Source of the DNA: Dehalococcoidia bacterium | Lineage (GTDB): Bacteria; Chloroflexota; Dehalococcoidia; Plut-88900 | DNA: 64,000 bases | Direction of reading: 5' to 3' | Assembly: GCA_965249275.1 (NCBI GenBank) | Contig: CBDFLQ010000005.1 | Span: forward strand, 224,001-288,000 | Shown: positions 11,484 to 63,709 of the stretch, one piece after another | How the letters are laid out: the number at the start of each line of letters is the position of its first letter | How positions within the stretch are numbered: position 1 is the first letter of the stretch | Program-made: the position numbers and the translations under genes | The notes under the pieces: model-generated | Databases searched by the model: none | Seen by the model: the letters and a program-made list of their open reading frames with translations, nothing else | Told to the model about the DNA's origin: nothing

Positions 11484-12201
11484 CTCGTTCGGTAGATTAG
11501 TGACACACTGGCCTTTTCTTCAGTTGTGGGGGTTCGGTTTCAGTTCTGTCTGTTAGGTTTTGGGTTGGCGATGAAAGACGCTTGCTGGATTCGGCTCCCT
11601 ATCTTTAGATAATGCGGGCTAGGAGGCGTCCCGGGAACGTGGGGACGGGGCTCCGCCGCCGCCTAGACCTGGAAGTATGGTCGGACATACGGGTCCGTCA
11701 TCCGTCATAGGCTCCAATGAAGGTTGGCTGCGCTGTCCGCCGTAGGCGGATGCAGGAAGGGGAAAGTCCAGGGTCAGTTCCCCTCGCAGGAGTACGGGGT
11801 ATCCAGTTCGCCGCCTGTATCCAGGAGCCGGGAGTGGCGGACAGTCCAGTTTTATTTGAGGAAGCGGACGGAGAGCCGAGCGGGCCTCGGCTACGGGCCG
11901 CCCCGTTCCGCTCCATGGGACGAGAGCTCCGAAAGGAGCCATAGGGACAATTACGGTCCAGGGCGTCTTCCATCGCCTGGGGTCAGGGAAGGGGGCGCGG
12001 GGCCCGGTAAGAGGAGATGGCGGCGTTTGCTTGAGCCGCGGGCCCCGTGTATGGGCCGTTGGGATGGGCTTGGACGTTGAGTCCTCGTTGTGGGCCGGGT
12101 GGGCTTCCCTGGGTGTTGGTTTCCTCCTTAAGGTGGGTGTCGGGTCTAGACTGGTCCAATAATAGAACATGTGTCTTATGAAGTCAAGGGGGTGATGTCA
12201 C
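11484..12201 (-). ncRNA. dispersed cassette copy A (putative SOS-regulated structured ncRNA)
   Basis: promoter TTGACT(12182-87)/TATTAT(12159-64); conserved leader; stem 11567-11581/11963-11977; tail motif CTACCGAACGAG. Confidence 0.6.
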
Positions 12202-12338
12202 CCCTCTATGTGAACGGGATCAGCTACTATCCTCACCATGACACCATCTTATGTGTCACCAATCTTTGTGAATGCCTTGACAGATATGGACTAGTGTTTT
12301 ATTCTGCGCCGCAGGATTTTTTCTAACAAGGTTAGCAC

Positions 12339-14648
12339 ATGCCTCACGTCCTGCGAGCGTCCTACACGTTTGGAATCTTCGCCATCATCGGGATTGCCCT
12401 GTTCTTTGCAGTCGGAGTCTTTGCCGACGACCATAATCCCGTGGACCTCTACCCTTCCGTTTCATGGGAGGGGGAGGAGATCACCCAGCCGGTTGTCGGG
12501 GAGTTCCTAACGGCAGCCCTGGTTGCCAAAGACCCGACCGGCATGTCCTGGCAGTGGGCCCGCTCCCAAGATGGAGAGGGCGGATGGGAGGACATTGAGG
12601 CTGCAACCTCTACGAAGTACATCCCCACCAATGATGACGTAGGGCGCTACCTCCGGGCAACAGTCTCCTATACCGATGGAGACGGCAACACCCAGAGTGC
12701 AGAGGCAAGCACCACCGATCAGGTGGTGCTAGAGAGGAGTGGTGTCCGCTGCCCATGGTGCGAACCTGAGCCGATATGGACGGCGACCTCCGTGCCCACT
12801 AATACACCCGTGCCCACTAATACACCCGTGCCCACCAGTACACCCGTGCCCACCAATACACCTTTACCCACCTCGAACCCTGACCCGTGTGACAGCACCA
12901 GGCACGCTCACGATTGCCACCCAGGGTACGAGACGCCAACACCGCAGCCGACATCCACGGCCGACCCATGTGACAGTACCAGGCACGCTCACGATTGCCA
13001 TCCAGGGTACGAGACGCCAACACCGCAGCCGACATCCACGGCCGACCCATGTGACAGCACCAGGCACGCCCACGATTGTCACCCGGACTATGAGACACCC
13101 ACTCCCACACCGACTCCCACACCCACTCCCACACCGACTCCCACACCGACTCCCACGCCTACTCCCACGATCATGCCTTGTGCAAATTGCCCCACCCCGA
13201 CCCCTATTCCGACCGCCACGCCAACGACAACCCCATCTCCAACGCCTGACCCGGACGAGGAGGAAGAGACCGACGACAGCGAGCCGACGGGCGATTGCGC
13301 CGTGGCGATAGCCGCAAGTAGGTGGAGTGACTATAACACCGCGGCCCTTGAGGATGAGTGTGGCGTCCTGCTTGCCATCAGTGATGCCTCCCGGGGGTCC
13401 TCCAGCCTCAACTGGACGGGCGACTCGTCCTTTGACAGGTGGACTGGGGTGTCGGTCAGTTTCGTGAGCGATGTGCCCCGGATAATTGGCATCTACCTGA
13501 GCAACCGGGGGCTGGAGGGACAACTGCCCTTCCAGTATGGCCAACTCCGTCAACTCACGACTCTGTATCTGGATGGCAACAACTACTCGGGGGCTGTCCC
13601 GTACGAGATCAGTTCCCTGCCCAATCTTCTCTTCCTTAACCTGGCGGGGAACGCCCTCACCGGTAACATACCGGTCCCAAGTTCACGGACCATCCAGCTC
13701 CTCATGCTTTCCAACAACCAGTTCAGCGGGTCGATCCCGGGATCCCTGGGTACGAAAGTGTCCCTGCGACTCCTCGACCTCTCGAACAACAACCTGACGG
13801 GGTCAATCCCCTCGGAGCTGACACAGTTGGCAGACACGTTGATGAGCCTGCGGATCGCCGGCAACAACTTCAGCGGGTGCGTGCCACATGCCATAGCTCT
13901 GGCCTTGGGACAGATTCGCAACCATGACCTTGGACATCTCAACATACAGGTCTGCTACGCAGACATCATCGAGTCCCCGGGGCACGCAGCAAACTGCTTT
14001 AGTCTCGTGTCTTGGTCGAGCGGCCAGGGGGTCAGTGAAACCGTAAGGCTGACCTCCCCCAGCGGGTACGACCACGAGTTCCACGTCGAATCGTATGGAT
14101 CCAACGGCGTCCTCCTAAGCCGTCAATGCCTGCAAGCCCGATTCGTGGGGGTTTCGACACCCGGGGCCCAAAGGCTTGAGTGGGGCGGGACCGTACACTA
14201 CGTCCCGCCGAGGTTCTTCACGCTGTCCCTTAGTGAAATAACGAACCTTAATGCGAGTAGTTTCCGTGCTTCTCTCAACAATGACCTGCCCGCAGGCGCT
14301 GACTCGCAGGTCCTGTCCGTCGATACCTCCTGTACCCAATGTAGAGGAGGCAATGCCCAGCCTACACTTGGTCACTGGGTTGACTTGAAGCACAATAGTT
14401 ACATGATGGCAGTGTATGGGTACTATACGTTTACAGTAGGCAACGTTAGCCAGACATTGAGGGCGTCTCACGAGTGGTCGCTGGAACCGCCCCACACCAT
14501 CCCGACCCACTGGGGCAACCCCCTGCTCACTGCCGCAGAGCAAGCTATTGCGAACCAAGCGTGGGAGCTGGCTACCTACGCAATTCATCTGGGGTTTGAT
14601 GCATTGGTCGCCGAATTGCAAGAGCAGTATGAGGACTGGATTAATTAG
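12339..14648 (+). CDS. secreted/surface protein: Ig-like N-terminus, Pro/Thr linkers, Cys/His repeats, LRR domain
   Basis: signal-like N-terminus; WQW..DVGRYLRATVSYTD; LxLxxNxLxGxIP repeats. Confidence 0.85.
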   Translation: MPHVLRASYTFGIFAIIGIALFFAVGVFADDHNPVDLYPSVSWEGEEITQPVVGEFLTAALVAKDPTGMSWQWARSQDGEGGWEDIEAATSTKYIPTNDDVGRYLRATVSYTDGDGNTQSAEASTTDQVVLERSGVRCPWCEPEPIWTATSVPTNTPVPTNTPVPTSTPVPTNTPLPTSNPDPCDSTRHAHDCHPGYETPTPQPTSTADPCDSTRHAHDCHPGYETPTPQPTSTADPCDSTRHAHDCHPDYETPTPTPTPTPTPTPTPTPTPTPTPTIMPCANCPTPTPIPTATPTTTPSPTPDPDEEEETDDSEPTGDCAVAIAASRWSDYNTAALEDECGVLLAISDASRGSSSLNWTGDSSFDRWTGVSVSFVSDVPRIIGIYLSNRGLEGQLPFQYGQLRQLTTLYLDGNNYSGAVPYEISSLPNLLFLNLAGNALTGNIPVPSSRTIQLLMLSNNQFSGSIPGSLGTKVSLRLLDLSNNNLTGSIPSELTQLADTLMSLRIAGNNFSGCVPHAIALALGQIRNHDLGHLNIQVCYADIIESPGHAANCFSLVSWSSGQGVSETVRLTSPSGYDHEFHVESYGSNGVLLSRQCLQARFVGVSTPGAQRLEWGGTVHYVPPRFFTLSLSEITNLNASSFRASLNNDLPAGADSQVLSVDTSCTQCRGGNAQPTLGHWVDLKHNSYMMAVYGYYTFTVGNVSQTLRASHEWSLEPPHTIPTHWGNPLLTAAEQAIANQAWELATYAIHLGFDALVAELQEQYEDWIN
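12882..13102 (+). repeat. 81-bp coding tandem repeat x3 (DPCDSTRHAHDCHPxYETPTP)
   Basis: units start at 12882, 12963, 13044. Confidence 0.9.
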
Positions 14649-14660
14649 AGAGAGGAACCC

Positions 14661-15338
14661 ATGAAGAAAAAAGCCCTTCTGCTTATGGCGGCATTAGCCA
14701 TGGTGGTGGTAATGTCCTGCTCTACGCGTTTGGGGGCCCAGGATCTACGGGTCCAGGCCTGTCAAAGCGCCGAGGCGCTTACGGACTTCGATGTGGAGTC
14801 AACGGTAACGAATTACGAGGACGGGAAGGTGGTCATGACAGCCACGGCTGTTCTCCAGGTCGATGCTCCTAACTGGCACAGAGTGGACTCCGACGAAGAG
14901 GGGGTTAAGCGAGGCGAGTTCCTGTTGTATGAGGGCGACCTGTACTGGCAACAAGGAGATGAGGGGTGGACAAAAGTCGGAGATGAGTCCACCCAGGAAG
15001 GCCAGGACGAACTGCGCTTCCCCATCGGCCCTACCTCGATCTGCCCAACGCTGACTGCCTTCAGCTATGACGCTGACGAGAAACTGGGCGAGGAAACGAG
15101 CAAGCGGTTCTCCGCCCCATCACTAACCGGGCAGGAGTGGGGAGATGACGCCCCGACGAACTCCCCTTACCAGGCGAACTTTATCATCTGGATAGATTTC
15201 GATGGGTACATAGTCAAGTCGCAGTGGGACTTTATTTACCCTTCCACCATGTGGGATGAGCCAACACCGGACCGCTACATCAGGGTTACCAGTGTGCATT
15301 CAGGGCACGGTGAACCCAACATCCTGCCGACGCCATAA
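14661..15338 (+). CDS. lipoprotein of unknown function
   Basis: MKKK + hydrophobic stretch + VMSC lipobox-like; GAGGA RBS. Confidence 0.75.
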   Translation: MKKKALLLMAALAMVVVMSCSTRLGAQDLRVQACQSAEALTDFDVESTVTNYEDGKVVMTATAVLQVDAPNWHRVDSDEEGVKRGEFLLYEGDLYWQQGDEGWTKVGDESTQEGQDELRFPIGPTSICPTLTAFSYDADEKLGEETSKRFSAPSLTGQEWGDDAPTNSPYQANFIIWIDFDGYIVKSQWDFIYPSTMWDEPTPDRYIRVTSVHSGHGEPNILPTP

Positions 15339-15340
15339 AG

Positions 15341-15631
15341 ATGGACAGGAAGTACATCTGGCCGTTGGTCCTGTTCGTAGCCCTACCTGCCGTAACGGCC
15401 TTGGCATTCCAAGTAATGGAGGTGGCCTTCTTTAGATCGCTGCTCAGAGATTTGCTGGGGATTCCACGATACCTTTACATTGAGTGGGTCTTTGCGCTCA
15501 TCTTCATTGCCGTCTACCTGCGTCTGATCCTGAGGCCGCCCAGCCCGATATTCCGTCCACTTGCGGGCATTGGGCTGACCCTGCTGATAATCCGCACGGC
15601 ATGGGCGGACACCCGGCCGGCCACACGATAG
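15341..15631 (+). CDS. small membrane protein (about 3 TM)
   Basis: starts 3 nt after the previous stop; three hydrophobic segments. Confidence 0.6.
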   Translation: MDRKYIWPLVLFVALPAVTALAFQVMEVAFFRSLLRDLLGIPRYLYIEWVFALIFIAVYLRLILRPPSPIFRPLAGIGLTLLIIRTAWADTRPATR

Positions 15632-15968
15632 ACTCCCGGACCCCAGTGTGGACACCGGCGCGGTCGGGGTGATCGGACTATCGTTGGAGAAGCGGGCTCC
15701 GCTCCGGGTTGCCCTAAGCGCCCTGGAAGACCGAATCGCCGAGAACCTCTCTAGGCCGAACGGCCAATAAATGTCCGCGCCCGCCCTCCGTGCCACGACA
15801 CTTCGGGCAGGGTCTTCGCGATGAAATTTCCCAGGGGGATATTGATAGTAGAATGCGACAGGCAAAGCTTTAGATTTGGGAAGGGAGGGCGCGAATATTT
15901 AACAGTTGGTTATGAAGTAACGAGGAGTCGTTAGCACTACACTGGCCTTTTGGCCGGACTATGAGGTA

Positions 15969-17420
15969 ATGAAATTGATTGATGGATCGAATCGGACTTT
16001 CCGGGGCGCCAAGAAACAAAGGATGGCCCTGGGTCTCCTAAGTATATTTCTAGTACTGGTCATGGTGGCCGCGGCCTGCGGAGAGGCGGCTACGCCAACC
16101 CCGGCGCCCCCAACGTCGGCCCCCGCTACGGCGGTTCCCGCTACCGCAGTGCCTCCCACCTCGGCGCCCGACACTTCGGAGCCCGACACTTCGGAACCGG
16201 CCACCGCAATGCCCGAGCCCGCAGCGACAACTGCGCCTGCCCCGGCAGCGACTGCCACGTCTCAGCCACCCACTGCCGTTCCCGAGCCGGAAATAACCCT
16301 CAGACCTATTTCTGAATGGACTCCGGAGAACCCAGCGACCCTGGAGGAGATAGAAGCTGAATTAGAGAAGCGCAGAGGTGAGACCTTCACCTTCGTATCT
16401 GCAGGCGGTGCATACCAGGCGGCCGAAAGGCAGGCATGGCTGGACCCGTTGCGGGAGAAGTTCGGCCTTGTGATAATCGAGGATAGTCCAGAGCCGAGCG
16501 TAGCCCAAACGCGATCTAATGCGGAGACCGGCAACATCGTGTATGACATAATACCCATGGGCGGCGCCAACGCTGCTGCCCTTCTCAAAACCGATAGCTT
16601 GGGACAGTACGATCGGGCTATCGTGGATGACAGAGATCTGCTGGACATCTTTACGGCACAGGGACCGTACCTTGCTGGCGGAGCGATCACCTGGTCTACA
16701 GTTCTTGCCTATAACACGGATGTCTACCCTGGGGATACCGGACCCAAGAGTTGGGCCGACTTCTTTGATCTGGAGCGATTCCCCGGCCGTCGCGCTCTGC
16801 GGAATGCGGTCGCCTACGGGGGACAGTTGCAGATCCAGAGACTGGCCCGAGAACCCGAGTTGCTGAGCGGCCAAGAAGGAAGGCGGTCGGTCGCTACACC
16901 TACTCAGGAGGAGATGATAGAAGACTTCGCATGGTTTGACGAATGGACCGATGAGGCAGGAAGCGACATCGTTTACTGGTCATTGGGCTCTGAGTGCCCC
17001 GAGTTTCTAATAGCCGGTGAAGTTGACATGTGCTCCGCCTGGAACGGCAGAATATTCGATGCCGCCCAGACGGGGGCGCCCATAGCGGTCTGCTGGGAGT
17101 GCGGATTCATGACGGGGATTTCCGCCTATACAGTAGCGAAGGGCCTCAAAGAGCAGGACCCGGAGCGGTACGAGCTAGTCAACTTAGTTATCGCCTGGAT
17201 CACGTTCCCCGAAAACAACGTGAGAATATCCCAGTTCATCACCTACGGTCCCGGTAACAGGAAATCATTCGCATTCATGGATGACCCGGCCTACGATCTA
17301 GTCCGGGACGAGCTGCCCACCTCGGGTTCAAACATCTCGTACGCCATACTATGGGATGAGACCTGGTTCGCAGCCAACTCGGACTGGGCCAGCGAACAGT
17401 TCGAACAAGCGATCCAATAG
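15969..17420 (+). CDS. ABC-type solute-binding lipoprotein (PotD/PotF-like)
   Basis: AAAC lipobox, P/T linker, GGAYQ, LAYNTD..PKSWADFFD..FPGRR, AWNGR. Confidence 0.85.
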   Translation: MKLIDGSNRTFRGAKKQRMALGLLSIFLVLVMVAAACGEAATPTPAPPTSAPATAVPATAVPPTSAPDTSEPDTSEPATAMPEPAATTAPAPAATATSQPPTAVPEPEITLRPISEWTPENPATLEEIEAELEKRRGETFTFVSAGGAYQAAERQAWLDPLREKFGLVIIEDSPEPSVAQTRSNAETGNIVYDIIPMGGANAAALLKTDSLGQYDRAIVDDRDLLDIFTAQGPYLAGGAITWSTVLAYNTDVYPGDTGPKSWADFFDLERFPGRRALRNAVAYGGQLQIQRLAREPELLSGQEGRRSVATPTQEEMIEDFAWFDEWTDEAGSDIVYWSLGSECPEFLIAGEVDMCSAWNGRIFDAAQTGAPIAVCWECGFMTGISAYTVAKGLKEQDPERYELVNLVIAWITFPENNVRISQFITYGPGNRKSFAFMDDPAYDLVRDELPTSGSNISYAILWDETWFAANSDWASEQFEQAIQ

Positions 17421-17492
17421 TGGGAGTGTGCCGGGGGCCAAGGACCGCGGCCTTTAGCTAACAGCATCCCGTAACGGCCTGCACATACAAAT

Positions 17493-17530
17493 GAGGCCCC
17501 CGGCCCTGAACATTCAGGGTCGGGGGCTTC
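17493..17530. terminator. long hairpin between convergent genes
   Basis: GAGGCCCCCGGCCCTGAA-CA-TTCAGGGTCGGGGGCTTC; related hairpin at 35712. Confidence 0.65.
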
Positions 17531-17655
17531 AGCTTTATCCCGGGTTGATCAAGAGTTCCCTAGAGGGGCTCTTGGACTGGTCCACTTGCGGTTGCTTTGT
17601 GGGCAACCCTCTCCCCTGGCCGGGTGAGAAGGAGCAATAAGAACAATTGGGGAGT

Positions 17656-18390
17656 CTATTTGCCTTTGCGCCGTAGCTCGCTGGAAGGGCACTGGTCCTC
17701 CAGGACACACAAGTCGCAAAGGGGCCTCTGCGCCTTACATACCTGCCTGCCGTGAGCGATGATGTAGATGTGCGCCCCGAGTACGTCATCGGGCGGGACC
17801 TTAGCCTCCAGAATGTCATGGGCGTCGTCCGCCGACACTTTGGCCCCGATCAGATTCAGCCGTTTCGCCACCCTGTGGACGTGGGTGTCGACGATCATCG
17901 CAGGCATGCCGAGGGAGAAGAGCAGAACACACCCCACCGTCTTGGGCCCGACCCCCGGCAGTTCCAGCAGCCACTTCTTCGCCTCTGCCAGCGGCATTTC
18001 GGCCAGGAAGGAGAGGTCCCAGGAGCCGTTTCGCTCAAGCACAGCAGAAAGAATTTCCTGGAGTCTCGGGGCCTTGACCTTGGCCAGCCCTCCTATCCTG
18101 ATCGAGTCGGCTAGCGCCTCGATGTCGGCATTCAGCACGTCCTCCCAGGTCGGGAAGGTCTCCGTCAGCTTGGCAAAGGCCCGGTAGGAGTTGATGTCCG
18201 AGGTGTGCTGGGAAAGTACAGTGAAAATGAGCTCCGACAACGGGTCGTAGGGGCGAGGAGCGGTAGGCGGGCCATAGACGGGGCCCAGCCTCGCCATCAG
18301 CTCTGCAATTGGGATGTGCTTTACGGTGCGGCCCCTCAAGGGGGATGGTCTGCGGCGTCGGGCCGGGGGCTTGGTCTTTGGTGTAGGCAT
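17656..18390 (-). CDS. nth: endonuclease III (HhH-GPD) family glycosylase
   Basis: LSQHTSD, LPGVGPKT, VDTHVHR, C-x6-C-x2-C-x5-C. Confidence 0.9.
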   Translation of the reverse strand: MPTPKTKPPARRRRPSPLRGRTVKHIPIAELMARLGPVYGPPTAPRPYDPLSELIFTVLSQHTSDINSYRAFAKLTETFPTWEDVLNADIEALADSIRIGGLAKVKAPRLQEILSAVLERNGSWDLSFLAEMPLAEAKKWLLELPGVGPKTVGCVLLFSLGMPAMIVDTHVHRVAKRLNLIGAKVSADDAHDILEAKVPPDDVLGAHIYIIAHGRQVCKAQRPLCDLCVLEDQCPSSELRRKGK

Positions 18391-26115: not shown

Positions 26116-26282
26116 GTACTCCCCTAAGTGGGCCGAGAATCTTATACACTCAAGGCCGCCGGCGCGTCCCTCCGTTGCTTAGAATCCTCCAACGGTACAT
26201 TGTAGGGCGCAAACCGGCGCGAAGTGTACATTACCGGTATTTTAGTGTCAAGATTTGGGGTAGTGGGCGGGTGGGGACACCG

Positions 26283-26313
26283 CCCCAGATTCCTCGCAGG
26301 GCATCGGAATGAC
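26283..26313. repeat. REP-like palindrome family 1
   Basis: CCCCAGATTCCTCGC..GGC.TCGGAATGAC; also at 39372, 48130, 48336, 57683, 58487. Confidence 0.8.
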
Positions 26314-26330
26314 AGGGGGAGGGGGTGGGT

Positions 26331-27040
26331 TATTCAGTTGTGTGGTTTCGGGTTCCGTTCTATTTGTTGGGGTGGTTGGCGATGGAAGACGCTGGCTGGA
26401 CGCTGCCCCCGTTCCTGTGCTTCGGGTGCTCCGACGCCCTGGAGCAAGGCCGCCGGCCCGCTTTTGCCGCTGCTGCGGCCTGTGGCCCTGTATACGCTGG
26501 ACGTGGGCAGGGACCATCAGGGCCACCAAGTCCGAGCCCGACTCCGGGGGGTTGGCTGCACCGCTATAGGGCGGCAAGGAGGCCCGTCCAGCGTCCGATG
26601 CCGGGCCTCTTGCAGGCGTAATGTGTCCAAGTTTGCCGGTGCGACCCGGAGCGCGTAGACCACCGGCTCCCGGCTTGATTAAGCGGACGGTGTACCGAGA
26701 GGGCCTCGGCGCCGGGCCTATCCGACCGCTATTCCGCTTGAAGGAGCGGCATCTCCGTTAGGAGCCTCACATGGAACGATAGCGAACCAGGGCGTCTTTC
26801 CATCGCCTGGGGGGTAGGGAAGGGTGCACGGGACCCGTGGGGATGAGGAGATGGCGGCGTTTGCTTGAGCCGAGGCCGGGCAATGCCGACCTACGGGATG
26901 GGCTTGGACGTTGAGTCCTCGGGTGGGTCGGGTGGGCTTCCCTGGGTTTTTGGTTCCTCCTTGAGATAGTTAGGTTGGTGTTCGAACGGTGGGGATAATA
27001 GCACGGATGTTCATAACGGGTCAAGGGGTTGATGTCACAC
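26331..27040 (-). ncRNA. dispersed cassette copy B
   Basis: TTGACC(27019-24)-GAACATCCGTGC-TATTAT(26995-27000); leader; stem 26378-26392/26792-26807. Confidence 0.6.
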
Positions 27041-27793: not shown

Positions 27794-27794
27794 A

Positions 27795-35747: not shown

Positions 35748-35865
35748 ACCTTGTCCTTCAGTTAAAGCCTTGGCCGACAGTGCCATGACATTGCTATCGT
35801 ATGACGCATTTGACAAGCCTCGTCTGCGGATAGTAACGTGGAAAGCACAAAGAAATAGACCACAA

Positions 35866-36212
35866 AGACAGTGAACGGGAATAGTAAGCCTCAAGCGGGG
35901 GCCAGAGAGTCGGGTTAGGTGTGAGCCGACCCCAGTGCAGAGGTTGAATGGGCCCGGGAGTCGCCAACCGAAACCCCGGTGTGAACCAGGAAAGTAGGCT
36001 TGGCCGGAGAGGGCACCGTTATCAGGGCCCAGGGTATCTCGTCGGGAGGCATCAGCGCCTTCCGGTGGACGTACCTGATCGAGATGTAGTCGGCTGACAA
36101 CCCCAAACGCCCCTTCTGCCGGGAGGATGGGTGAGTCAAACGGGTTGGGGCCGATCAAATTAGGGTGGCACCGCGAGAAACCCCCTCGCCCCTAAGGGCG
36201 AAGGGGTTTTTT
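35866..36212 (+). promoter_or_regulatory. T-box riboswitch, Trp specifier, with terminator
   Basis: GA motif/AGTA, AGAGA and GGTGTGA apical loops, GAA-TGG specifier (35946-51), AGGGTGGCACCGCG (36162-75), hairpin plus T6. Confidence 0.92.
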
Positions 36213-36232: not shown

Positions 36233-37705
36233 ATGACGAGCATAGCAATAAGCAGATACACGCCAGACCTGGCTACCCTGGAAGGGCTTTCCAGCCAGGG
36301 AAACCTTGTCCCTGTATACAGGGAGATAGACGCCGATCTGGAGACTCCGGTCTCCGCCTACCTGAAAGTCGCCAGGGGGGACTATTCCTTCCTATTGGAA
36401 AGCGTAGAGGGTGGGGAAAGGCTAGCGCGGTACAGTTTCATCGGGACGGAGCCCTACAAGCGGGTTGTTACCGGGCCGGGCCAGACCGACGGAGACGTGG
36501 ACCCTTTGAAGCTTGTCCAGGAAGAGATCGAGAGATCGTCGGTTGTAAGCGTACCGGGCCTGCCTCGGTTCCACGGTGGGGCTGTCGGGTACCTGAGCTA
36601 CGAGGCGATGCATCACTATGAGGATGTACCGTCGCCGGAAGTCGACACCCTGGGCCTGCCCGAGGCGCTCTTCATGTTCGCCGACACTCTGCTAGTCTTC
36701 GACCATGTAAAGCACAGCATCAAGGTCGTTTCCCATGTCCGGCTGGACGGCGGGGATACATCGTCGGCCTACCAGCAGGCCGTAGACAAGATAGACAAGT
36801 TGGTGGAGAGGCTTCGGCAACCCATAGAGCCTGCCCTGGCCGCTCTTCGGGGTGGGCCCTCGACCTCCTACCCAACCGAATCCAACCTGACCCAGGAGCA
36901 GCACGAAGCGAATGTAAGTGCAGCCAAGGATTACATCCGGGCCGGGGACATCATCCAGGCCGTCCTGTCGCAGAGGTTCTCCCGCAAGACCGACGTCCAC
37001 CCGTTCAACATCTACCGAACCCTCAGGACGGTGAACCCGTCTCCCTACATGTTCTACTTGAACATGGGCAGTTTCCAGCTGGTTGGGGCCTCGCCGGAGG
37101 TACTGGTGCGGGAGGAGGAAGGGCAACTGGACTACCGTCCCCTCGCTGGGACCAGGCCCCGGGGGAAGGACGACGAGGAGGACCTGGCCTTGGAGCGGGA
37201 CATGACGAACGACGAAAAGGACCGGGCCGAGCACATAATGCTCCTGGACCTGGGTCGGAACGACATTGGGCGGGTGAGCATACCGGGCACCGTGCAGGTA
37301 ACCGAGCTCATGGAAGTAGAACGGTACTCCCACGTCATGCACCTTGTATCCCACGTCCAGGGACGGCTGAGGCCCGACATATCCCCCTACGATGCTGTCT
37401 GGTCATGCTTCCCCGCTGGCACCGTTTCCGGTGCGCCCAAGCTCCGGGCTATGGAGATCATCGCCGAGCTGGAACCTGACAAGAGGGGCCCCTATGCCGG
37501 GTCTGTTGGGTACTTCAGTTTTTCGGGCAACATGGACACATGCATAACCCTCAGGACGATAGTGTTCAGCAACGGCGTGGCCCACTTCCAGTCCGGGAGC
37601 GGCATTGTTGCCGACAGCGTGCCCTATTCGGAGTACATGGAGACGGTCCACAAGTCCATGGCCATCAGGAGGGCAATCGATGAGGCTGAGGCCAGGTCGT
37701 GGTAG
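36233..37705 (+). CDS. trpE: anthranilate synthase component I
   Basis: LETPVSAY, LLESVEGG, NPSPYM, AEHIMLLDLGRND, GTVSGAPK. Confidence 0.95.
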   Translation: MTSIAISRYTPDLATLEGLSSQGNLVPVYREIDADLETPVSAYLKVARGDYSFLLESVEGGERLARYSFIGTEPYKRVVTGPGQTDGDVDPLKLVQEEIERSSVVSVPGLPRFHGGAVGYLSYEAMHHYEDVPSPEVDTLGLPEALFMFADTLLVFDHVKHSIKVVSHVRLDGGDTSSAYQQAVDKIDKLVERLRQPIEPALAALRGGPSTSYPTESNLTQEQHEANVSAAKDYIRAGDIIQAVLSQRFSRKTDVHPFNIYRTLRTVNPSPYMFYLNMGSFQLVGASPEVLVREEEGQLDYRPLAGTRPRGKDDEEDLALERDMTNDEKDRAEHIMLLDLGRNDIGRVSIPGTVQVTELMEVERYSHVMHLVSHVQGRLRPDISPYDAVWSCFPAGTVSGAPKLRAMEIIAELEPDKRGPYAGSVGYFSFSGNMDTCITLRTIVFSNGVAHFQSGSGIVADSVPYSEYMETVHKSMAIRRAIDEAEARSW

Positions 37706-46276: not shown

Positions 46277-46564
46277 CTAGACCTGAGCCTTGCGATCAAT
46301 CTCGGCCTTAGTTGCACGGTAGCTTGACTCCAGGTTAAGCCAGACTTGGGCTTTCAATCCGAGGACATTCTCCAAGGCGAGGGCTGATTCTCGGGTTATG
46401 GTTGTCTCGCCCGCAATGATGCCGTCGACAATTTCTACGGCGCACTCGAGACTTGAAGCTAATTCCGAGGGAGTCATTCTCCGGGCTTCTAGCTCTTCAG
46501 CCAGTAATTCTCCGGGGGGAATCGCTATATTGGAGCGCAAGCGGACTTTCTTCTCAGTCGCCAT
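46277..46564 (-). CDS. higA: HigA antitoxin
   Basis: PPGELLAEEL HTH, WLNLESSY. Confidence 0.88.
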   Translation of the reverse strand: MATEKKVRLRSNIAIPPGELLAEELEARRMTPSELASSLECAVEIVDGIIAGETTITRESALALENVLGLKAQVWLNLESSYRATKAEIDRKAQV

Positions 46565-46850
46565 AGTGTCTTGAAACCTCTACTACCCGGACTTCGTTAA
46601 CCGCCTCTTTTTCGACAATGAGTCGCCATCTATCGTGAATCGTTATCGCGAATTGGCCTGCCCGATTACCTCGTAGCGGGTGTAACCTGAGCGATCTGGC
46701 ATCATATAAGTCTTCCAAACGTTCGGTAGCATATAACAACTCTATCCTACCGACATATTTGCGTCCAGCTATATCGCCCCATGTGCGCCTTGCATGGTCT
46801 AAGTCTTCGAAACATCTTTGTAATTTGGCGGTTGAAAACCTGACTTCCAT
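46554..46850 (-). CDS. higB: HigB (RelE-like) toxin
   Basis: LHPLRGNRAGQFAI..WRLI; toxin precedes antitoxin; palindrome GGTGGCAC-N4-GTGTCACC upstream. Confidence 0.85.
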   Translation of the reverse strand: MEVRFSTAKLQRCFEDLDHARRTWGDIAGRKYVGRIELLYATERLEDLYDARSLRLHPLRGNRAGQFAITIHDRWRLIVEKEAVNEVRVVEVSRHYGD

Positions 46851-47031
46851 GACGGAGCTTTTAACATTGAGAAGGTGGCACCATAGTGTCACCATCTCTT
46901 AGTAAGCGAGACATTGTGATCGATACGGTGGCTCAGGCAATGGACGGAAAGACCCCTTTGGAGACCCTACAATCCCTCTAATTCTGTCAACGAATTACCT
47001 GACATCTACAGGAATGACGGAGGGGGCGGGT

Positions 47032-48100
47032 CTCGTTCCGTTTGAGTATTCAGTTGTGTGGGGTGAGGGTGGGGTTATTTGTCAGACGGGGACGGCTCCT
47101 TTCGGTGGTGGAGGGAAGGCGACCAGCCAGTCGGCCATACGTGGGAGGGAATGGGTTCACGCTTCCCGTAGGCGGACTTGCGACAGCCCAGGTTGAGCGG
47201 CAAAAGGGGATGGATTCCGGCTCGGGGGCCGGAAGGATGGAGTAAAGGGGCGGGAATGACGGAACGGGAGGGGGAGGGGATGGAAGGTCCCGGACGGTTG
47301 CGCAGGAAGACGGCGACGCCTGTACCGATGCGTGTTGTCCGCCACAGCGGATGTTCCACATTGGCGCCGGCTTTGCGACAGCCCCGTGCTTCTGAGAGGA
47401 TGTGGAGGAGACGCGAGGGAATCTCGGTGTGGGGCAGTCTCGACCACCAGAAGTGCCCGGCCATACGGAGATATGGGGGCGTGGACTCTCTGCCGTCGCT
47501 GTGTGGCATGGCCTCTCCGAGGGCAACGACGGTGGAGTCCGGTGAGGGGGAATTGCGCTCGGCCACTCGGAGGGGTGGTGGGAGCGGTGACTGACTGCCG
47601 TCGCCGGGTGAAAGGGGGTCTCCGAGAGGGACGACGGTGTAGTCCTGCAAGGGCGTGATGGCCCTTAGCCTGAGCCCGGGATATTTGGGCTCCTTGGATG
47701 CGCCGAGGGCGGATCCACTGCGCCCGGTGAGAGGGGCGCCTATCCGGCAGTTGCCTTTGGAAAGGGCAAGCCGTTTTTTGTCCGGGAACCTTCCATAGCC
47801 GGTCACGTAGACCGGGAGGGACAGTGATTGATCGCTGCGGAGGCGGAGGCGATGGGCCTTGGGGCAGCGCTTGTAGTGGGGGATGTGTAGTGGGACGGTG
47901 GGTGGAAAGGGGCAGGTGAAGAGGCGCGTGCCGGAAGCCGTGCGGTGCCATACCGTTCGGTTGCAACGGGGCCTATGAAGGCTGGTGCGACTCATGGGAC
48001 TCCTTTAGTCCTTTTCCTTATTAGGGCCGACGTTGGGAGTCGGGCCTGAGGGGCAATATAGTACATGTGTTCAAGGCAAGTCAAGGGGTTAGTGTCACAT
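47032..48100 (-). ncRNA. dispersed cassette copy E (long divergent variant)
   Basis: TTGACT(48079-84)-GAACACATGTAC-TATATT(48055-60); stem 47280-47295/47780-47796; tail TTCAGTTGTG at ~47049. Confidence 0.5.
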
Positions 48101-48120: not shown

Positions 48121-48545
48121 GAAGCCCCGCCCCAGATTCCTCGCGGGGCCTCGGAATGACGGGGGAGAAGGGGGTGGGTGGGTGGGGAGGGGTGTGACGG
48201 ATTGGTGGGGCGTGGGCCGCCCCCCGCTCGACCCTTCGAGTGCCTCAGGGTGAGCGGCCCCACGCCGCGGGATGGATTCGTGCCTCGGCGCTGGCATGAC
48301 GGAGTAAAGGGAGGGAGAGGGGACTGGACCCCACTCCCCAGATTCCTCGCGGGGTCTCGGAATGACAGTGTAAACGACCTCGCTTGGGAGTCAGGATAAC
48401 CACGACGGATTGGTAGTGCAGGGCCACCCCTCGCTCGACCCTTCGACATTGCTCAGGGTGAGCGGCCCCGTCCCTAGGGATGCCCTCGCCCCTACGCCGC
48501 GGGATGAATTCCGGCTCTCGGGGGCCGGAATGACGGAGGGGAGTG
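48121..48545. repeat. mosaic cluster of REP-like palindromes
   Basis: family 1 at 48130 and 48336; GCTCGACCCTTCGA..CTCAGGGTGAGCGG at ~48221 and ~48430; (G/A)ATTCCGG..CCGGAATGAC at ~48506. Confidence 0.8.
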
Positions 48546-51452: not shown

Positions 51453-51536
51453 GGAATGCAGTCACCTAAACTAAGGGGGTCCGGGAGGCCGACGACAATT
51501 TTAGCATCGGGGTGGGGGGAGGGGAAAGGGTGTGTG

Positions 51537-52437
51537 CTCGTTCGGTAGATTAGTGACACACCGGGTTTTTATTCAGTTGTGGGGGGTGGGGTTTGATTGT
51601 TTTGGGGTTTCAGGCACGAGTTTGATTGTTTAAGGGGCGGGAAGGGAACCCTCACCCCCTTGATCCCCCTCTCCCTTAGGGCCTTCAAGGGAGAGGGGGA
51701 GAGAAGAACAGAGGCAGAGGTTGGCGCAGAAGCGCCAACCTCTGCCTCTAGTTCAATACTGGGGAGGGGATGACGGTGGGGAAGGAGTTGTTCAGTTGTT
51801 GGGTTTCGTTTTCCATTTTGTCTGTTGGGAAGGGGTAGGCGATGGAAGGTCCGGGACTCTTATGCAGGGGCGGGAGGCCGGCCTGCTCATCCCACTTGTG
51901 TTTTGTGAAGGCGGTACAGGGTGGAGAAAATCTCCCAGTGTGGGGGTTCCCCGTCCACCAGAAGGGCTCGATGGCCCTTGGAGCCCCGGGTTGCGGGGCT
52001 CATCCGATTCGCCGGCAAGTTCAATGCCGACCACGTAGTGCGCCCTGCAAGAAAGGCGCTGCATCTTTCGGCTGTTATGGCCCATCTCTTCGGCCCTTCC
52101 ATTAGGAGGGCCTGTGCCGGATAAAGAGGGGCTACATCGGCTGCGATGGCCCTTCCCTCAGGAGGGCCTGTGCCGGGTTGAGTCCAGGACATCTTCCATC
52201 GCCTGGGGATCAGGGAAGGGGCACGGGACCCGATGGGGATGAGGAGATGGCGACTGTCGCTTGTGCCGCGGGCCCCGTGTATGGGCCGTTGGGATGGGCT
52301 TAGACGTTGAGTCCTCGGGGCCGGGGCTGGTGTTCCCCCTGGGTTTTTGGTTCCTCCTTAAGGTAGTTAGGGTGATGTTCGAACGGTGAGGATAATAGCA
52401 CGGAAGTTCTGGTCAGGTCAAGGGGGTGGTGTCACAC
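51537..52437 (-). ncRNA. dispersed cassette copy C (tail duplicated around an inserted palindromic module)
   Basis: TTGACC(52416-21)-GAACTTCCGTGC-TATTAT(52392-97); stem 51837-51859/52180-52204; tail motif identical to copy A at 51537-51561. Confidence 0.6.
51644..51772. repeat. ~130-bp two-hairpin module (second copy 63738-63868)
   Basis: GGGAACCCTCACCCCCTTGATCCCCCTCTCCCTT..AAGGGAGAGGGGGA followed by a perfect 18-bp hairpin. Confidence 0.8.
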
Positions 52438-52761: not shown

Positions 52762-53002
52762 ATACAAACCTCCTATGATTTGTGGGACTTTGAGGACGAT
52801 ATTCTGATTGCATTCGTGCCTGTATCCTTGAACTTCGCAAGAATTTTCGTGGGGGCCGGGGTGGGGAGGCGGTTGAAGAGGAACGGGAAAAAGAGGTACA
52901 TGGGAATGGGATATTATAGGTGAGGGGTTCGGGGGTGGGTCAATGGGCCGGTGTCACACGGGACAGGGCGTTGCAGGTTAGACGAAAGACAAGGGGAGAA
53001 GC

Positions 53003-58373: not shown

Positions 58374-58486
58374 GATGTCCTCCAGAGGCGGCGTGTGCGG
58401 TGGTCAAGGGGTGGTGGTTGTGGGAGAAAGCTTAGCAAATGGGGGGTGGGGGTGCAATGGGGTAGAGGGGTGGGGACAACCCCCAG

Positions 58487-58826: not shown

Positions 58827-58827
58827 G

Positions 58828-59796: not shown

Positions 59797-59954
59797 GTGG
59801 ATTTGCCTCCGGGCTTGTTTATTAGGGGGAGTATATCAGGAGGGATGGAATGGGACGCGTGAGTGGTATGAAGAAGTTCAGGGATACTGTGAGAGTAAGT
59901 GTTATGATCTGGCGACCGAATTTTGAATTGTTCATGTATTTCGAAAGGTGAAAA

Positions 59955-60293
59955 ATGGGAAAGTACGTAGCGCTCTATTACTCATCGCCTGAGGTTATGG
60001 AGTCGATGAAGAATGCCTCTCCGGAGGACATGCAGGAAGGCATTAAGTCCTGGATGGCCTGGGGCCAAAAGTGCGGGGACGGCATCGTCGACTTTGGCTC
60101 GCCGCTAGGGGGTGGGATGAAAGTTGGGAAGTCGAGAAGCTCGCCGAGCGGCAGCGGTGTGATGATGTACTCGATTTTGCAGGCGGAGAGTATGGAAGGG
60201 GCGCTGGCCCTTGTGCAGGACCACCCGCACTTGAGTTGGCCGGGCGACGGCGAGATCGAAGTTTACGAGTGCATGAATCTCCCGCCTATGTAG
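59955..60293 (+). CDS. YciI-like small protein
   Basis: WMAW..DFGSPL..YSILQAES..HPH. Confidence 0.75.
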   Translation: MGKYVALYYSSPEVMESMKNASPEDMQEGIKSWMAWGQKCGDGIVDFGSPLGGGMKVGKSRSSPSGSGVMMYSILQAESMEGALALVQDHPHLSWPGDGEIEVYECMNLPPM

Positions 60294-60377
60294 GAGCGCG
60301 CTCCGAAGTCCTACCTCAACACATTCAGGGCCCTCTTAGTTACTCCGCGGGCTCGTGTCCCATCCCCCCTGAATAAA

Positions 60378-60414
60378 GAAACGTGGGAAACTGCTAAGCA
60401 GTTTCCCACGTTTC
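60378..60414. terminator. 17-bp perfect hairpin between convergent genes
   Basis: GAAACGTGGGAAACTGC-TAA-GCAGTTTCCCACGTTTC. Confidence 0.75.
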
Positions 60415-60448
60415 ATATATTTAAGAGCGGCAAGGCCCTTCGCACCTG

Positions 60449-62884
60449 CTAAGCCACTATATTCACCAGCCGACCCGGTACGTAGACGACTTTCCGAGGG
60501 CCGTTCTTCATGAAGGCCCTTATTCGCTCGCTGGATAGGGCTATTTTCTTCGCCTCTTCCTCGGTGATGCCCGCCGAGACGGTCACCCGGTCTCTGACCT
60601 TGCCGTTGACCTGCACAACGAGGGTGACCTCTTCCTCTGCGGCGAGGGCATCGTCCCATTGGGGGAAGGGTTGATTGTGAATGCTGTATTCGTAGTCTTT
60701 TGCGGCCCACAACTCCTCGGAGAGGTGGGGGGCGGTTGGGGCGAGCATCAGCAACAACGCCCTTATCGACTCTCTCCAAGTCTCCCCGTCCACCGACCCT
60801 TCATCCAGGGCTCGGGCGAGGTGGTTGGTGAACTCCATCAGCGAGGCTAGTGCAGTGTTGAAATGGAACCGATCCAGGTCCTGGTGCACCTTCCTGGTTG
60901 TCTTGTGCAGCATGTGAATCGTCTGCTTCGACGACTTACCCTGCCTCAATTCCGGGTCGTCACGTTCCGCCAGATCCCAGACCCGGTTGTACCAACGCAC
61001 TATCCCGTTTATCCCCTGGTCGACCCACTCTCCACCCTGGTCCCACGGCCCGATGAACATCAGGTATCCGCGAACGACGTCGGCGCCTACGGTGTCGACG
61101 TACTCATCTGGCGTGATGACGTTGCCCCGGGACTTACTCATCTTCTGCCTGTCGCTGATGATAATGCCCTGGTTGTAGAGCCTGACGAAGGGCTCGTCGA
61201 AGTCCAGCAAGCCGATATCCCGCAGGGCCTTGACGAAGAAGCGGGCGTAGAGGAGGTGCATTACCGCGTGCTCGGCGCCGCCGGTGTACTGGTCGACGGG
61301 CAGCCAGTGCTTGATCTCCTCGGGTTTGAAAGCCGAGTCCCCGGAGTTGGGGGAAGCGTACTTTAAGAAGTACCAGGAGGAGCACATGAATGTGTCCATG
61401 GTGTCGGTCTCCCGGCGAGCCGGGCCTCCACACTCGGGGCAGGTCGTATTCACAAACTCTTCGTGGAAGGTGAGAGGAGACTCTCCCGTGGGCCTGAACT
61501 CGGCGTCCTCCGGTAGCAGCACCGGAAGTTGGTCCTCGGGGATGGGGACTATGCCACAAGCATTGCAGTAGACCATGGGTATCGGGGCTCCCCAATACCG
61601 CTGGCGGGATATGAGCCAATCACGGATACGGTAAGAGACTGTGCCGCCACCGATGCCCTGCTCCTCCAAGGCTCTTGTAACCGCCTGCTTCCCATCTTCA
61701 TTCCCAAGGCCCACGAACTGTCCTGAGTTGACCATCTCGCCGGATCCCGTATAGGCCTCCACAAGGTCCTCGCCGCTCCATCCAGGCGGAGCGATTACCG
61801 TCCTTATGGGCAGGTCATATTTCTTGGCGTAGGCGAAGTCCCGGGTGTCGTGGGCGGGGACGCCCATGACGGCACCAGTGCCGTAGGTGAGGAGTGCGTA
61901 GTCGGCGATGAAGATGGGGACCTTCTCGCCGTTCAGCCGGTTGGTGCAGTAGGCTCCGATGAATACTCCCGTCTTCTCCTTGTCCGTAGCAAGCCGCTCA
62001 ATCTCGGAGCGCCGCCTCGTTTCCTCGACGTAGGCTTGCACCTCTTCCTTTTTGTCAGGAGTAGTGAGCTGGGCAACAAGCGGATGCTCTGGGGCGAGAA
62101 CCATGAAAGTCACGCCGAACACGGTGTCGGGGCGGGTGGTGAAGACCCGTATTTCTTTTTCTTCCAGCCCATACTCCTCGATGCTGAATGAGATCTCGGC
62201 ACCCTGGCTGCGGCCAATCCAGTTGGACTGCATTGTATTTATGCGGTCGGGCCACTGGATGCTGCTGAAGTCGAGGAGTTCGTCGGCGTACTTTGTGATC
62301 CTGAAGAACCACTGCTCGAGGTCTCTCCTGGTCACCGAGGCACTACAACGCTCGCAGGTACCGTCGGGGAGGACTTGCTCGTTTGCTAGGGTGGTCTGGC
62401 AGGTCGGGCACCAATTGGCCGGGGCCTTGTTCCGGTACGCGAGCCCTGCGTGGAACAGCTTGAGGAAAAGCCACTGAGTCCACTTGTAGTAATCTGGCAG
62501 GGATGTCACGACCTCACGGTCCCAGTCGTATACAGCGCCGATACGCTTGAGCTGGCGGCGCATGTTCTCGACGTTGCGCATGGTCCACAAATGGGGATGA
62601 ATGCCGTTCTTGATGGCGGCATTCTCGGCCGGGAGTCCGAAGGCGTCGAAGCCCATGGGGTGGAGAACGTTGTAGCCCTGCATGCGCTTGAAACGGGCGT
62701 GGACGTCCGCGGGGGCCATGGCGTACCAGTGGCCGATGTGCAGGTTCCCGGAGGTGTACGGGAACATGGTCAGCTCATACCACTTGGGCTTGTCGGGGTC
62801 TTCCTGGACGCGGTACAGCCGGTCCTCAATCCACCTCTGCTGCCACTTGGTCTCTATTGCAGACGGGTCGTATCTGAGGGGCAT
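60449..62884 (-). CDS. leuS: leucine--tRNA ligase
   Basis: HIGH, KMSKS, TTRPDT, DWLISRQRYWG. Confidence 0.98.
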   Translation of the reverse strand: MPLRYDPSAIETKWQQRWIEDRLYRVQEDPDKPKWYELTMFPYTSGNLHIGHWYAMAPADVHARFKRMQGYNVLHPMGFDAFGLPAENAAIKNGIHPHLWTMRNVENMRRQLKRIGAVYDWDREVVTSLPDYYKWTQWLFLKLFHAGLAYRNKAPANWCPTCQTTLANEQVLPDGTCERCSASVTRRDLEQWFFRITKYADELLDFSSIQWPDRINTMQSNWIGRSQGAEISFSIEEYGLEEKEIRVFTTRPDTVFGVTFMVLAPEHPLVAQLTTPDKKEEVQAYVEETRRRSEIERLATDKEKTGVFIGAYCTNRLNGEKVPIFIADYALLTYGTGAVMGVPAHDTRDFAYAKKYDLPIRTVIAPPGWSGEDLVEAYTGSGEMVNSGQFVGLGNEDGKQAVTRALEEQGIGGGTVSYRIRDWLISRQRYWGAPIPMVYCNACGIVPIPEDQLPVLLPEDAEFRPTGESPLTFHEEFVNTTCPECGGPARRETDTMDTFMCSSWYFLKYASPNSGDSAFKPEEIKHWLPVDQYTGGAEHAVMHLLYARFFVKALRDIGLLDFDEPFVRLYNQGIIISDRQKMSKSRGNVITPDEYVDTVGADVVRGYLMFIGPWDQGGEWVDQGINGIVRWYNRVWDLAERDDPELRQGKSSKQTIHMLHKTTRKVHQDLDRFHFNTALASLMEFTNHLARALDEGSVDGETWRESIRALLLMLAPTAPHLSEELWAAKDYEYSIHNQPFPQWDDALAAEEEVTLVVQVNGKVRDRVTVSAGITEEEAKKIALSSERIRAFMKNGPRKVVYVPGRLVNIVA

Positions 62885-62967
62885 TAAACTGTCCGTTCTC
62901 CTAAGTGCGAATCCTCCCGACAATCGCAAAAGCTACCACGGGGGGCGGGGGGGCGCAAGGATGGGCA

Positions 62968-63709
62968 CTCGGTCGGTAGGGTAGTGGCCACCGGGTTTTC
63001 TTCAGTCCTCCTGAGGCGGATCTTCGATTGTGGGGTTTGGGTTTTGGTTTCGGTTTGATTTGTTTGGGAGGGGGCAGGCGATGGAAGGTCCGGGACTAGA
63101 AACCAGGCCGGGGGTAGCTGCCGAGCCGTCGGCGCCGGGCTGGATTATCCCCACACGTTGCCGGCTGTGGTCAGGGTTGTGTGGGGCAGATCCCAAATCG
63201 TGAGCGGCACATGACCGGACCGCTGACGTGGAAGATGCCGCCTGAGGCGGTCTTTCAGAACCGGCGTCCCGGTGCATCCGCCGGGTAGACGGGTGGCAGG
63301 GACGGCGGGACAAACAAGGACACGAGGGCCTTGCTAAACCGGGGGTCGGTTGACCTACCGGGAAAACCGGCGCGCAATGGGCCGGGGTAAACGCACCCGA
63401 TGATGGGGGGCGTTGAATCGGCAGGGGCGTCCTTGGACGGGGCCTGCCGAGCAGAGTCTGTGGACATTCCATCGCCTGGAAGTAGGGGAAGGGATAGCCG
63501 GGGCCCTTGTAAAGAGGAGATGGCGGCGTTTGCTTGAGCCGCAGGCCGCGAGACGACCATTGGGATGGGCTGGGACGTTGAGTCCTCGGGTGGGTCGGGT
63601 GGGCTTCCCCCTAGGTTTTTGGTTCCTCCTTGAGATAGTTAGGGTGGTGTTCGAACGGTGGGGATAGTAGCACGGGTGTTCAGGTAGAGTCAAGGGGTTC
63701 GTGTCACAC
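62968..63709 (-). ncRNA. dispersed cassette copy D
   Basis: TTGACT(63688-93)-GAACACCCGTGC-TACTAT(63664-69); leader; stem 63075-63097/63455-63478. Confidence 0.6.

Follow-up and report, generated by a model that had tools for sequence, protein, structure and literature searches.

Correia elements of Neisseria, ERIC sequences and MITEs (miniature transposable elements with inverted repeats) represent promoter-bearing miniature, non-autonomous transposons of bacteria, and Pack-MULEs are non-autonomous transposons of plants with captured pieces of host genes ("transduplication"). The large ornate non-coding RNAs (ncRNAs) of bacteria such as OLE, GOLLD, ROOL and HEARO are represented in Rfam. In a 64,000-nt stretch (the window) of the genome of a Dehalococcoidia bacterium (G000; 2.9 Mb, 87% complete) five loci on the minus strand, designated A to E, share a common layout. 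The original prediction regarded them as non-coding cassettes, namely either as a DNA-damage-inducible structured RNA or as a non-autonomous element with exchangeable RNA cargo; our analysis, which included relatives labelled G002, G003, G005 and G006, partly confirmed the observation and partly supports the interpretation. We assign a probability of about 70% to the reading that the loci belong to genus-restricted, ~0.75-kb non-autonomous DNA transposons, which were built from parts of a terminase-like operon, namely its promoter and an internal piece. They are neither a free-standing RNA gene family nor wholly non-coding.

Similar to Pack-MULEs the elements appear to contain a captured gene piece, which keeps the original frame in some copies, and they are transcribed. 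Unlike Pack-MULEs they are bacterial, the captured piece brought along its own, presumably regulated promoter, and the family seems to go back to a single source gene. With the large ornate RNAs they share a length of several hundred nt, many helices, an association with mobile or phage DNA and, as in some of those families, a multicopy occurrence; however, they lack an Rfam match, possess transposon ends and contain several cores that appear to be decayed coding sequence. The likeness to Correia elements, ERIC sequences and MITEs (cf. the review PMC10969869) comprises dispersed intergenic copies, terminal inverted repeats, a target duplication, the lack of an own transposase, structured transcripts and a promoter able to act on neighbouring genes. 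In contrast to these, the elements described here are 5-7 times longer (~750 bp), their promoter is complete, internal and equipped with an operator-like palindrome, and their interior is a predicted folded RNA unit of 550 nt which in part seems to originate from a cellular or phage-type gene; they furthermore target the edge of the -35 hexamer, appear to swap their interiors between copies and have no known matching autonomous insertion sequence. Integron integrases (PMC3108266) and phage GIL01 (PMC4551915) likewise have a LexA-type palindrome that overlaps the promoter of the mobile or phage-derived unit, but here the product is mostly ncRNA instead of a recombinase or a lytic operon, and the operator, a candidate by sequence, has drifted to GTAC-N4-GTAC or GAAC-N4-GTGC. 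Literature listings and abstracts contained no bacterial counterpart of gene-fragment-carrying transposons and nothing relevant on Dehalococcoidia MITEs, terminase-derived transposons, conserved Dehalococcoidia terminase genes or LexA boxes in MITEs. The elements would represent a family of bacterial transposons in which a piece captured from one identifiable gene became the interior and was remodelled to a folded RNA.

From 5' to 3' an element comprises a terminal repeat, a near-consensus sigma-70-type promoter with a LexA-type palindrome in the spacer, a 5' hairpin, an exposed AAGGAGGAA, a compactly folded leader of ~150-165 nt, a core of ~400 nt closed by a helix of ~15 bp, an unstructured A/C-rich tail and a second terminal repeat. 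The five loci of the window were found within a few bases of their predicted positions, the promoter module was seen in all five, and all motifs quoted for the conserved leader of A-D (predicted as ~190 nt) were present. In A-D AAGGAGGAA and the leader are followed by GGCGATGGAA, by 366-430 nt differing between the copies, and by TTCCATCGCC. The predicted inverted repeat is exact in B, C and D as well as in E, which has its own pair of arms (ATGGAAGG..CCTTCCAT), but the 3' arm of A reads TTTCATCGCC, by which the pairing is kept as G.U. As predicted, the A/C-rich tail contains a CACAACTGAA-like sequence in all five loci and CTACCGA(A/C)CGAG in A, C and D; these three terminate in ...GTGTCACTAATCTACCGAACGAGTACAC or a variant thereof.

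The expectation of many more copies genome-wide was borne out. A blastn search detected 57 matches to the leader in the genome, 54 of which extend as far as the arm, a number well beyond a chance occurrence. Both arms with no more than two mismatches are present in 51 of these 54 copies, and 53 have their own promoter, the remaining copy being located at a contig end; the promoter module gave 84 matches across the whole genome. The E-type sister subfamily, which has the promoter type and the tail in common with A-D, accounts for at least 12 copies in G000. The leader was found by DNA search in all eight genomes of the genus and, by DNA similarity search, in none of 32 genomes outside it (three other genera of the family and 29 other families of the class). 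Judged from these matches the elements constitute a genus-restricted superfamily with ~70 members per genome, ~54 of them carrying the A-D leader and at least 12 belonging to the E type.

The evidence for transposition is provided by the ends of the elements, which were defined, together with the target duplications, for one of three promoter families. Both ends (5' GATCCCGTTCACATAGAGG..., 3' ...CTACCGAACGAGTACAC) are present in 17 of the 54 copies, mostly ~730-890 bp and in two cases near 1.0 and 1.2 kb apart, and form an imperfect inverted repeat: 16 of 23 positions agree in a hand alignment of the 5' CCCGTTCACATAGAGGGGTGACA with the reverse complement of the 3' CTCGTTCGGTAGATTAGTGACA. Eight of the 17 copies are flanked by identical 5-bp sequences (AGGGT, CGGAT twice, CATTT, AGGTT, CCCCT, CCTAT and CAGCT), which correspond to seven independent cases since two of the copies are located in a duplicated region; in three further two-ended copies the flanks agree at four of five positions. 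The copy at C6:177400-178151 has AACCT on both sides in G000 and the element is found in G002 at 95% identity, whereas in G005 the flanks abut exactly at 2473782/2473783 with a single AACCT (G005 reads ...GGTCAAACCT|ATGC..., G000 reads ...GGTCAAACCT[element]AACCT|GCTC...). The difference between the two genomes at this locus is one insertion with a 5-bp duplication. A second copy, C6:461084, is absent from G003. Terminal inverted repeats, 5-bp target duplications and the precise empty site, which the proposed search in related genomes yielded, bear out the alternative of a non-autonomous element. A free-standing RNA gene family is not supported, as it leaves the target duplications and the empty sites unexplained.

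In the orientation of the element the last of the duplicated bases is T and the next bases are TGAC, which places the element at the upstream edge of the -35 hexamer of the next gene. In 13 of 25 long-tail copies (hand count) the bases after the duplication read exactly TTGAC or TTGAT. Insertion thus occurs at the upstream edge of a host -35 hexamer, with the element aimed at the host gene. A regulated promoter copied ~70 times through a small genome, exactly before host promoters, would offer a route to rewire a stress regulon.

The promoter, and in many copies also the core, presumably derive from a two-gene operon encoding a small protein and a terminase-large-subunit-like ATPase-nuclease. 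G000 contains two full-length parent genes, each located after a small open reading frame (ORF) and the same GTGACAC..TTGAC..TATATT promoter as found in the elements; one of these copies adjoins rpmH-rnpA. The parent gene was detected in 199 of 301 Dehalococcoidia genomes and 127 of 192 genera (E <= 1e-20; including the unpublished G243), usually once per genome and with 46-58% identity, and in several full-length copies per genome within the genus. Given this spread over the Dehalococcoidia it is not a recent arrival. PHROG terminase-large-subunit families match the parent protein at residues 6-165 (phrog_9, E 2.5e-4) and 328-435 (phrog_5909 and phrog_5713, E 2.6e-6 and 3.8e-6), which covers both the ATPase and the RNase-H-like nuclease part. 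The Pfam domain Terminase_6C was found below its cut-off in the G200 homologue (E 0.003, 18 bits vs 22.6), no NCBIfam or PDB sequence matched the parent protein, and PADLOC, run on the parent proteins and the E-type ORF, reported one marginal match to LmuB (E 0.009). It is noteworthy that no other phage genes were seen beside this Dehalococcoidia-wide operon with its LexA-type operator at the loci inspected. The 5' untranslated region (UTR) of the parent operon (G000:C7:110770-110800, CCGAAACCAACTGAATTGCTGAAAAGACC) resembles the 3' tail of the elements (CCGAAACCCCACAACTGAAGAAAAGGCC), which hints at a copied unit that was once arranged differently or at a motif with a function of its own.

As expected from the differences between the copies in the window, the cores fell into several blastn classes, nine in total, with 12, 10, 10, 6, 5, 3, 2, 2 and 1 copies. 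Profiles of the classes 1, 5, 6 and 7 gave matches to the terminase-like gene that extend along the entire core (nhmmer, E 4.9e-16 to 1.8e-56), the value for class 1, to which D belongs, being 4.9e-16. The core of C matches the same gene in nhmmer (E 1.7e-17 and 2.4e-15) and tblastn searches (E 7e-4), and tblastn likewise gave matches to the nine E-type copies of the alignment and to copies of the classes 5, 6 and 7. Residues 34-242 of the E ORF correspond to residues 282-455 of a terminase-like protein of 550 aa in a relative (38% identity, E 4e-31). According to these similarities the cores of C, D and E are a decayed internal piece of ~400 nt of a terminase-large-subunit-like gene. In one type of parent gene the arms of the closing helix are coding (GGCGATGGAAGG for G-D-G-R and CCTTCCATCG(T)C for P-S-I-V). 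The converse origin of the likeness, an insertion of the element into a terminase-like gene, is argued against by homologous residues in other genera. In class 1, seven of 12 copies are stop-free from an SD-like (Shine-Dalgarno) AAGGAGG to the end of the core, some of them via indels summing to a multiple of three. The claim that no reading frame is conserved is therefore only partly true for C and D, whose cores appear to descend in frame from a coding gene. The remaining classes 2, 3, 4, 8 and 9, which include A (class 3) and B (class 2), are related to each other, and A and B contain stops in all frames.

The core class is independent of the three promoter families and of the tail variants. 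At the locus of D, class 1 is present in G000 and G002 and class 6 in G005; at the locus of C upstream of uvrA, G000 has class 7, G002 class 9 and G005 a leader with a core outside all nine classes; at C6:461084 the core belongs to class 6 in G000, and in G002 and G005 the leader and the tail match but the core does not. Since the class differs at orthologous loci, the cores have been exchanged or replaced, either by recombination between copies via the constant parts or by repeated hits on the same target. The predicted exchangeable cargo was thus found to be exchangeable, but it is not arbitrary RNA, as the cores of C, D and E seem to be decayed gene fragments. A core inversion was discarded due to the lack of any opposite-strand core-to-core match, and an integron-like or invertible cassette since no core lies in opposite orientation and no recombinase is located beside the five loci.

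All five loci share GTGACAY-N-CCCCTTGAC, followed after 18 nt by TATTAT or TATATT. This 18-nt spacer contains a palindrome-like GNAC-N4-GTNC of 12 nt, with GAAC-N4-GTGC, GTAC-N4-GTAC, AGAC-N4-GTTC and GTAC-N4-GTTC as the variants found in the elements. The LexA box of Dehalococcoides is reportedly of the GAAC-N4-GTTC type. In G000, lexA carries GAACGCCCGTTC adjoining its -10 and recA carries GAACACATATCC. In three other genera the box of the parent operon reads GAACGCATATTC, GAACATATGTAC or GAACATATGTGC, which match GAAC-N4-GTTC at seven of eight positions; a -35 and a -10 were recognised around the box in G011 and G223, and the box of G200 abuts TATTAT. That the box is conserved in parent operons of different families speaks for a genuine LexA-type operator. 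In the elements a LexA-type operator appears plausible from their spacers, and their strong promoter is probably under DNA-damage control. GTGACAC is also located 6-8 nt upstream of the -35 of the window promoters at 52957 (-) and 18642 (+), which have no operator; it is not restricted to this family and may represent a general upstream promoter element of the organism.

If the loci are such transposons, LexA would bind to the operator, and transcription would begin at the element promoter and yield a structured, mostly untranslated RNA. Lacking a terminator, the transcript would presumably continue toward the host gene. The RNA folds may be retained for transcript stability or propagation, copies would recombine through the constant leader and tail and thereby swap their cores, and mobilisation would be achieved in trans by a separate enzyme.

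Among the alternative explanations, the one that survives best, yet appears unlikely, regards the loci as multicopy genes of functional large structured ncRNAs with the cores as distinct RNA modules on a constant scaffold, induced by DNA damage and with an incidental mobility. The covariation of the leader helices speaks for it, but is likewise among the evidence for the transposon reading. In 47 leaders RNAalifold predicted a long-range helix of CAGGGAAG with CUUCCCUG, which is replaced by GGGGGAA with UUCCCCC in one sub-lineage, in addition to a pairing of GAGGA with UCCUC and to two hairpins with fully changed sequence in which the pairing is kept. Of the leader cells 95.1% are paired vs 41-51% with slid partners, 83 vs 3-11 cells show a double change, and none of 500 shuffles attained the observed score, figures that are generous since the structure was derived from the same alignment in which the pairs were then counted. 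Changes in the arms keep a G.U pair in 19 copies and break it in five, four of them at the outermost pair. The closing helix, which measures ~6-10 bp in the parent gene, is lengthened to ~15 bp in the elements, and its extension differs between the classes in a compensating manner (GGUCC/GGACC vs GACGC/GCGUC). The leader and the closing helix are thus supported by sequence comparison to behave as RNA helices. Furthermore, the metatranscriptomes of four studies contain contigs which cover the class-3 core with 95-99% identity (11563-11979 in A), and one 489-nt contig from an RNA library spans the tail, the core and part of the leader; the absence of contigs over window positions 12668-16002 in all four runs was not read as evidence. 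Based on the contigs and the helix pairing the elements are transcribed with constraints at the RNA level.

Across 22 copies from four species the class-3 core shows 93% identity with long invariant runs, and 57 one-sided changes in its predicted helices keep a standard pair, nearly all by a change to G.U, compared to nine that break it. It is noteworthy that a 400-nt core of the A/B type, for which no source was detectable, has been kept at this level across species, and A and B lack an ORF. However, only one of 109 predicted class-3 pairs shows a double change, the variation being too small for a covariation test of the predicted core structure, and recent spread or gene conversion could also result in a high identity. 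No Rfam match supports an ncRNA gene either: at gathering thresholds the window yielded just a T-box and a tRNA, and neither copy B, searched at E <= 10, nor nine class representatives, searched at E <= 1, yielded more than sub-threshold chance matches, consistent with the statement that no known RNA family was recognised. Taking furthermore into account that the target duplications, the terminal repeats and the precise empty site show transposition and that half of the core classes seem to be decayed coding sequence, the structured RNA holds as to covarying leader helices and coverage by RNA-library contigs, but not as a free-standing gene family.

It is still less probable that the loci encode truncated terminase paralogues, which might for instance interfere with phage packaging, with A-D being pseudogenised. 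This explanation relies on the E subfamily, for which the claim of no conserved reading frame is wrong and that of a non-coding cassette does not hold in a simple sense. The E ORF has a proper SD and ATG. In the ATG frame there is no stop in any of nine E-type copies, compared to 30 and 24 stops in the other two frames, and each of the eight indel events located before the 3' arm has a length divisible by three. Simulated with the substitution spectrum observed, the sequences were predicted to gain ~1-2 new stops per copy and 12.8 in total, of which none was found. The E ORF is matched by 385 predicted proteins in public data, and most of the ~130 matches listed for the searched genomes have no internal stop, with one or two in six of those listed. 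However, the median ratio of nonsynonymous to synonymous substitutions is 0.9, with an equal degree of variation at all three codon positions (0.167, 0.183 and 0.158), the protein contains neither the ATPase domain nor the C-terminal third of the nuclease domain, and AlphaFold2 (23 sequences) returned no secondary structure, with a mean pLDDT (predicted local distance difference test) of 47.8 and a pTM (predicted template modelling score) of 0.13. Neither Pfam nor PHROG gave a match to the E ORF, PADLOC gave no accepted one, and the leader of A-D has no start codon after the SD and indels of 1, 2 and 4 nt. We read these data as selection for an open frame without selection on the residues, and the maintenance of the frame without visible amino-acid constraint is noteworthy in itself.

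A further reading, which we consider a long shot, assumes that the LexA-type-controlled small protein and the terminase-like ATPase-nuclease form a machine acting on the elements, either moving them or starting DNA packaging from ~70 sites upon DNA damage. The nuclease, with an RNase-H-like fold as in transposases, would cut the element ends, and the A/B cores of unmatched origin would be RNA cofactors or recognition modules. Every element copy carries the operon-type promoter region, and the GTGACAC motif is found inverted at the 3' end. If true, this would be a terminase-derived transposition or gene-transfer system.

Searches for a mobilising enzyme gave no candidate. In agreement with the claim that neither a transposase nor a reverse transcriptase is located nearby, PF00078 had no match in G000 (87% complete), which also speaks against a retroelement or retron, and the transposon ends and target duplications are present despite the lack of a nearby transposase. 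G000 contains many insertion sequences, none with the ends of the elements. A 2.6-kb insert in a G006 copy was rejected as the autonomous form since it turned out to be an IS21-type element without relation to the family, with TTGAGCCA-repeat ends and inserted on the opposite strand. An rve-type insertion sequence of 1.3 kb often found next to the elements, present in eight copies of at least 99.5% identity, was rejected as well, as it shares no ends with them and inserts into a different target, a palindromic repeat of the CCCTCTCCC type. Leader matches in relatives that appeared "short" turned out to be copies with a longer variable hairpin.

Least probable of all are exapted regulatory cassettes whose operator-promoter reads into the next gene and places host genes under DNA-damage control: the insertion just upstream of host -35 boxes, the lack of a stem-plus-T-run terminator in the tails inspected, the presence of an element upstream of uvrA in each of three species and the lack of a GAAC-N4-GTTC box between C and uvrA agree with it, but the five genes downstream of the elements in the window include just one repair gene, the reading presupposes read-through, and the host promoters are intact downstream of the element.

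Several points weigh against the transposon reading preferred here. Just 17 of the 54 copies have both ends, and these ends are defined for one of the three promoter families. Neither a transposase gene between matching ends nor a longer element with these ends was found in G000, and no terminal repeats were found around seven full-length terminase-like genes in four genomes. The element operators match GAAC-N4-GTTC at only six to seven of eight positions. The absence of element A from relatives is confounded by the position of its argC site at the edge of a 6.2-kb indel. As to the RNA, the leader figures are generous for the reason given above, the contigs give no strand, ends or level of the RNA, and DNA is possible in RNA libraries. 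The conservation of the class-3 core exceeds what simple selfish decay would leave. In a genome search the classes 2, 3, 4, 8 and 9 had no nhmmer match outside the known copies, to the terminase-derived classes or to the parent gene, so the gene-fragment origin covers just a part of the family.

Table 1. Positions of the five elements in the window and of the parent operon copies outside it.
Feature	Position	Strand	Details
Element A	11479-12221	-	5' end GATCCCGTTCACATAGAGG; 3' end CTACCGAACGAGTACAC
A promoter	12186-12181; 12176-12163; 12164-12159	-	-35 TTGACT; operator-like AAGACACATGTTCT; -10 TATTAT
A interior	12129-12121; 11567-11977; 11480-11566	-	AAGGAGGAA; arm-to-arm core (class 3, group X); A/C-rich tail
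Element B	~26329-27040	-	-35 27024-27019; spacer with GAACATCCGTGC; -10 27000-26995
B interior	26962-26954; 26378-26807	-	AAGGAGGAA; core (class 2, group X)
Element E	~47031-48098	-	GTGACAC 48098-48092; spacer GAACACATGTAC; own 5' UTR hairpin, SD and ATG
E interior	47075-47995; 47796-47789; 47287-47280	-	ORF (306 aa); arm ATGGAAGG; arm CCTTCCAT; tail with CACACAACTGAA
Element C	51532-52437	-	upstream of uvrA; promoter from 52437; spacer GAACTTCCGTGC; core 51838-52203 (class 7); 3' end ...CTACCGAACGAGCACAC
Element D	62963-63708	-	upstream of leuS; promoter from 63708; spacer GAACACCCGTGC; core 63077-63476 (class 1); 3' end ...CTACCGACCGAGTGCCC
Parent operon copies	G000:C7:110680-112617; G000:C5:1-2360		outside the window; homologues in L084, L085 and L086

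The genes downstream of the five elements are argC, uvrA, leuS and those encoding a MaoC-type dehydratase and a HigB-like toxin. Element A is missing at the argC promoter in all five relatives, which retain the promoter GCCTTGATTT... there. In place of a segment of 6.2 kb (11478-17660), which includes element A, the gene of a leucine-rich-repeat protein of 769 aa and neighbouring genes, G005 has ~40 bp and G002 has ~2 kb of other sequence. Element B is present at the orthologous site of G002 with 92% identity and in a diverged form in G005; its tail is short, with CACAACTGAATAA as the final sequence and no 3' terminal repeat. B contains no stop-free frame, and no source gene of its core was found in the genome. 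Element E is missing or different at the orthologous site in G002 and G005. The gene located 3' of E (46554-46895, -) has a Pfam match to a HigB-like toxin below the cut-off (E 3.3e-5), and the ORF at 46277-46564 could encode its partner. The tail of C is interrupted at ~51640-51790 by an unrelated small palindromic repeat, and that of D holds one CCGCCTCAGGAGGAC mini-insert.

The window also contains a T-box leader (35862-36196, +) with 100.7 bits, above the Rfam gathering score, upstream of the ORF at 36233-37705. Small palindromic repeats are present at window positions 51640-51790, 63760-63880, 48130-48180 and 26270-26320 as well as at many sites of the genome, often beside or inside elements. 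They comprise a family 1 (CCCTCTCCC..GGGAGAGGG..GGGGGTGAGGGT) and a family 2 (GTCATTCC..GGAATC..GGGGCGG). In addition, a unit of ~22 nt, GGAACATCCGCCTCTGGAGGA(C), occurs in zero to three tandem copies in many tails, e.g. at 62990-63020 in D, and was also found inserted in the leaders of C6:148095 and C6:41943 and in the 5' UTR of the E-type copy C5:477228; it resembles a small insertion module or a hairpin prone to slippage.

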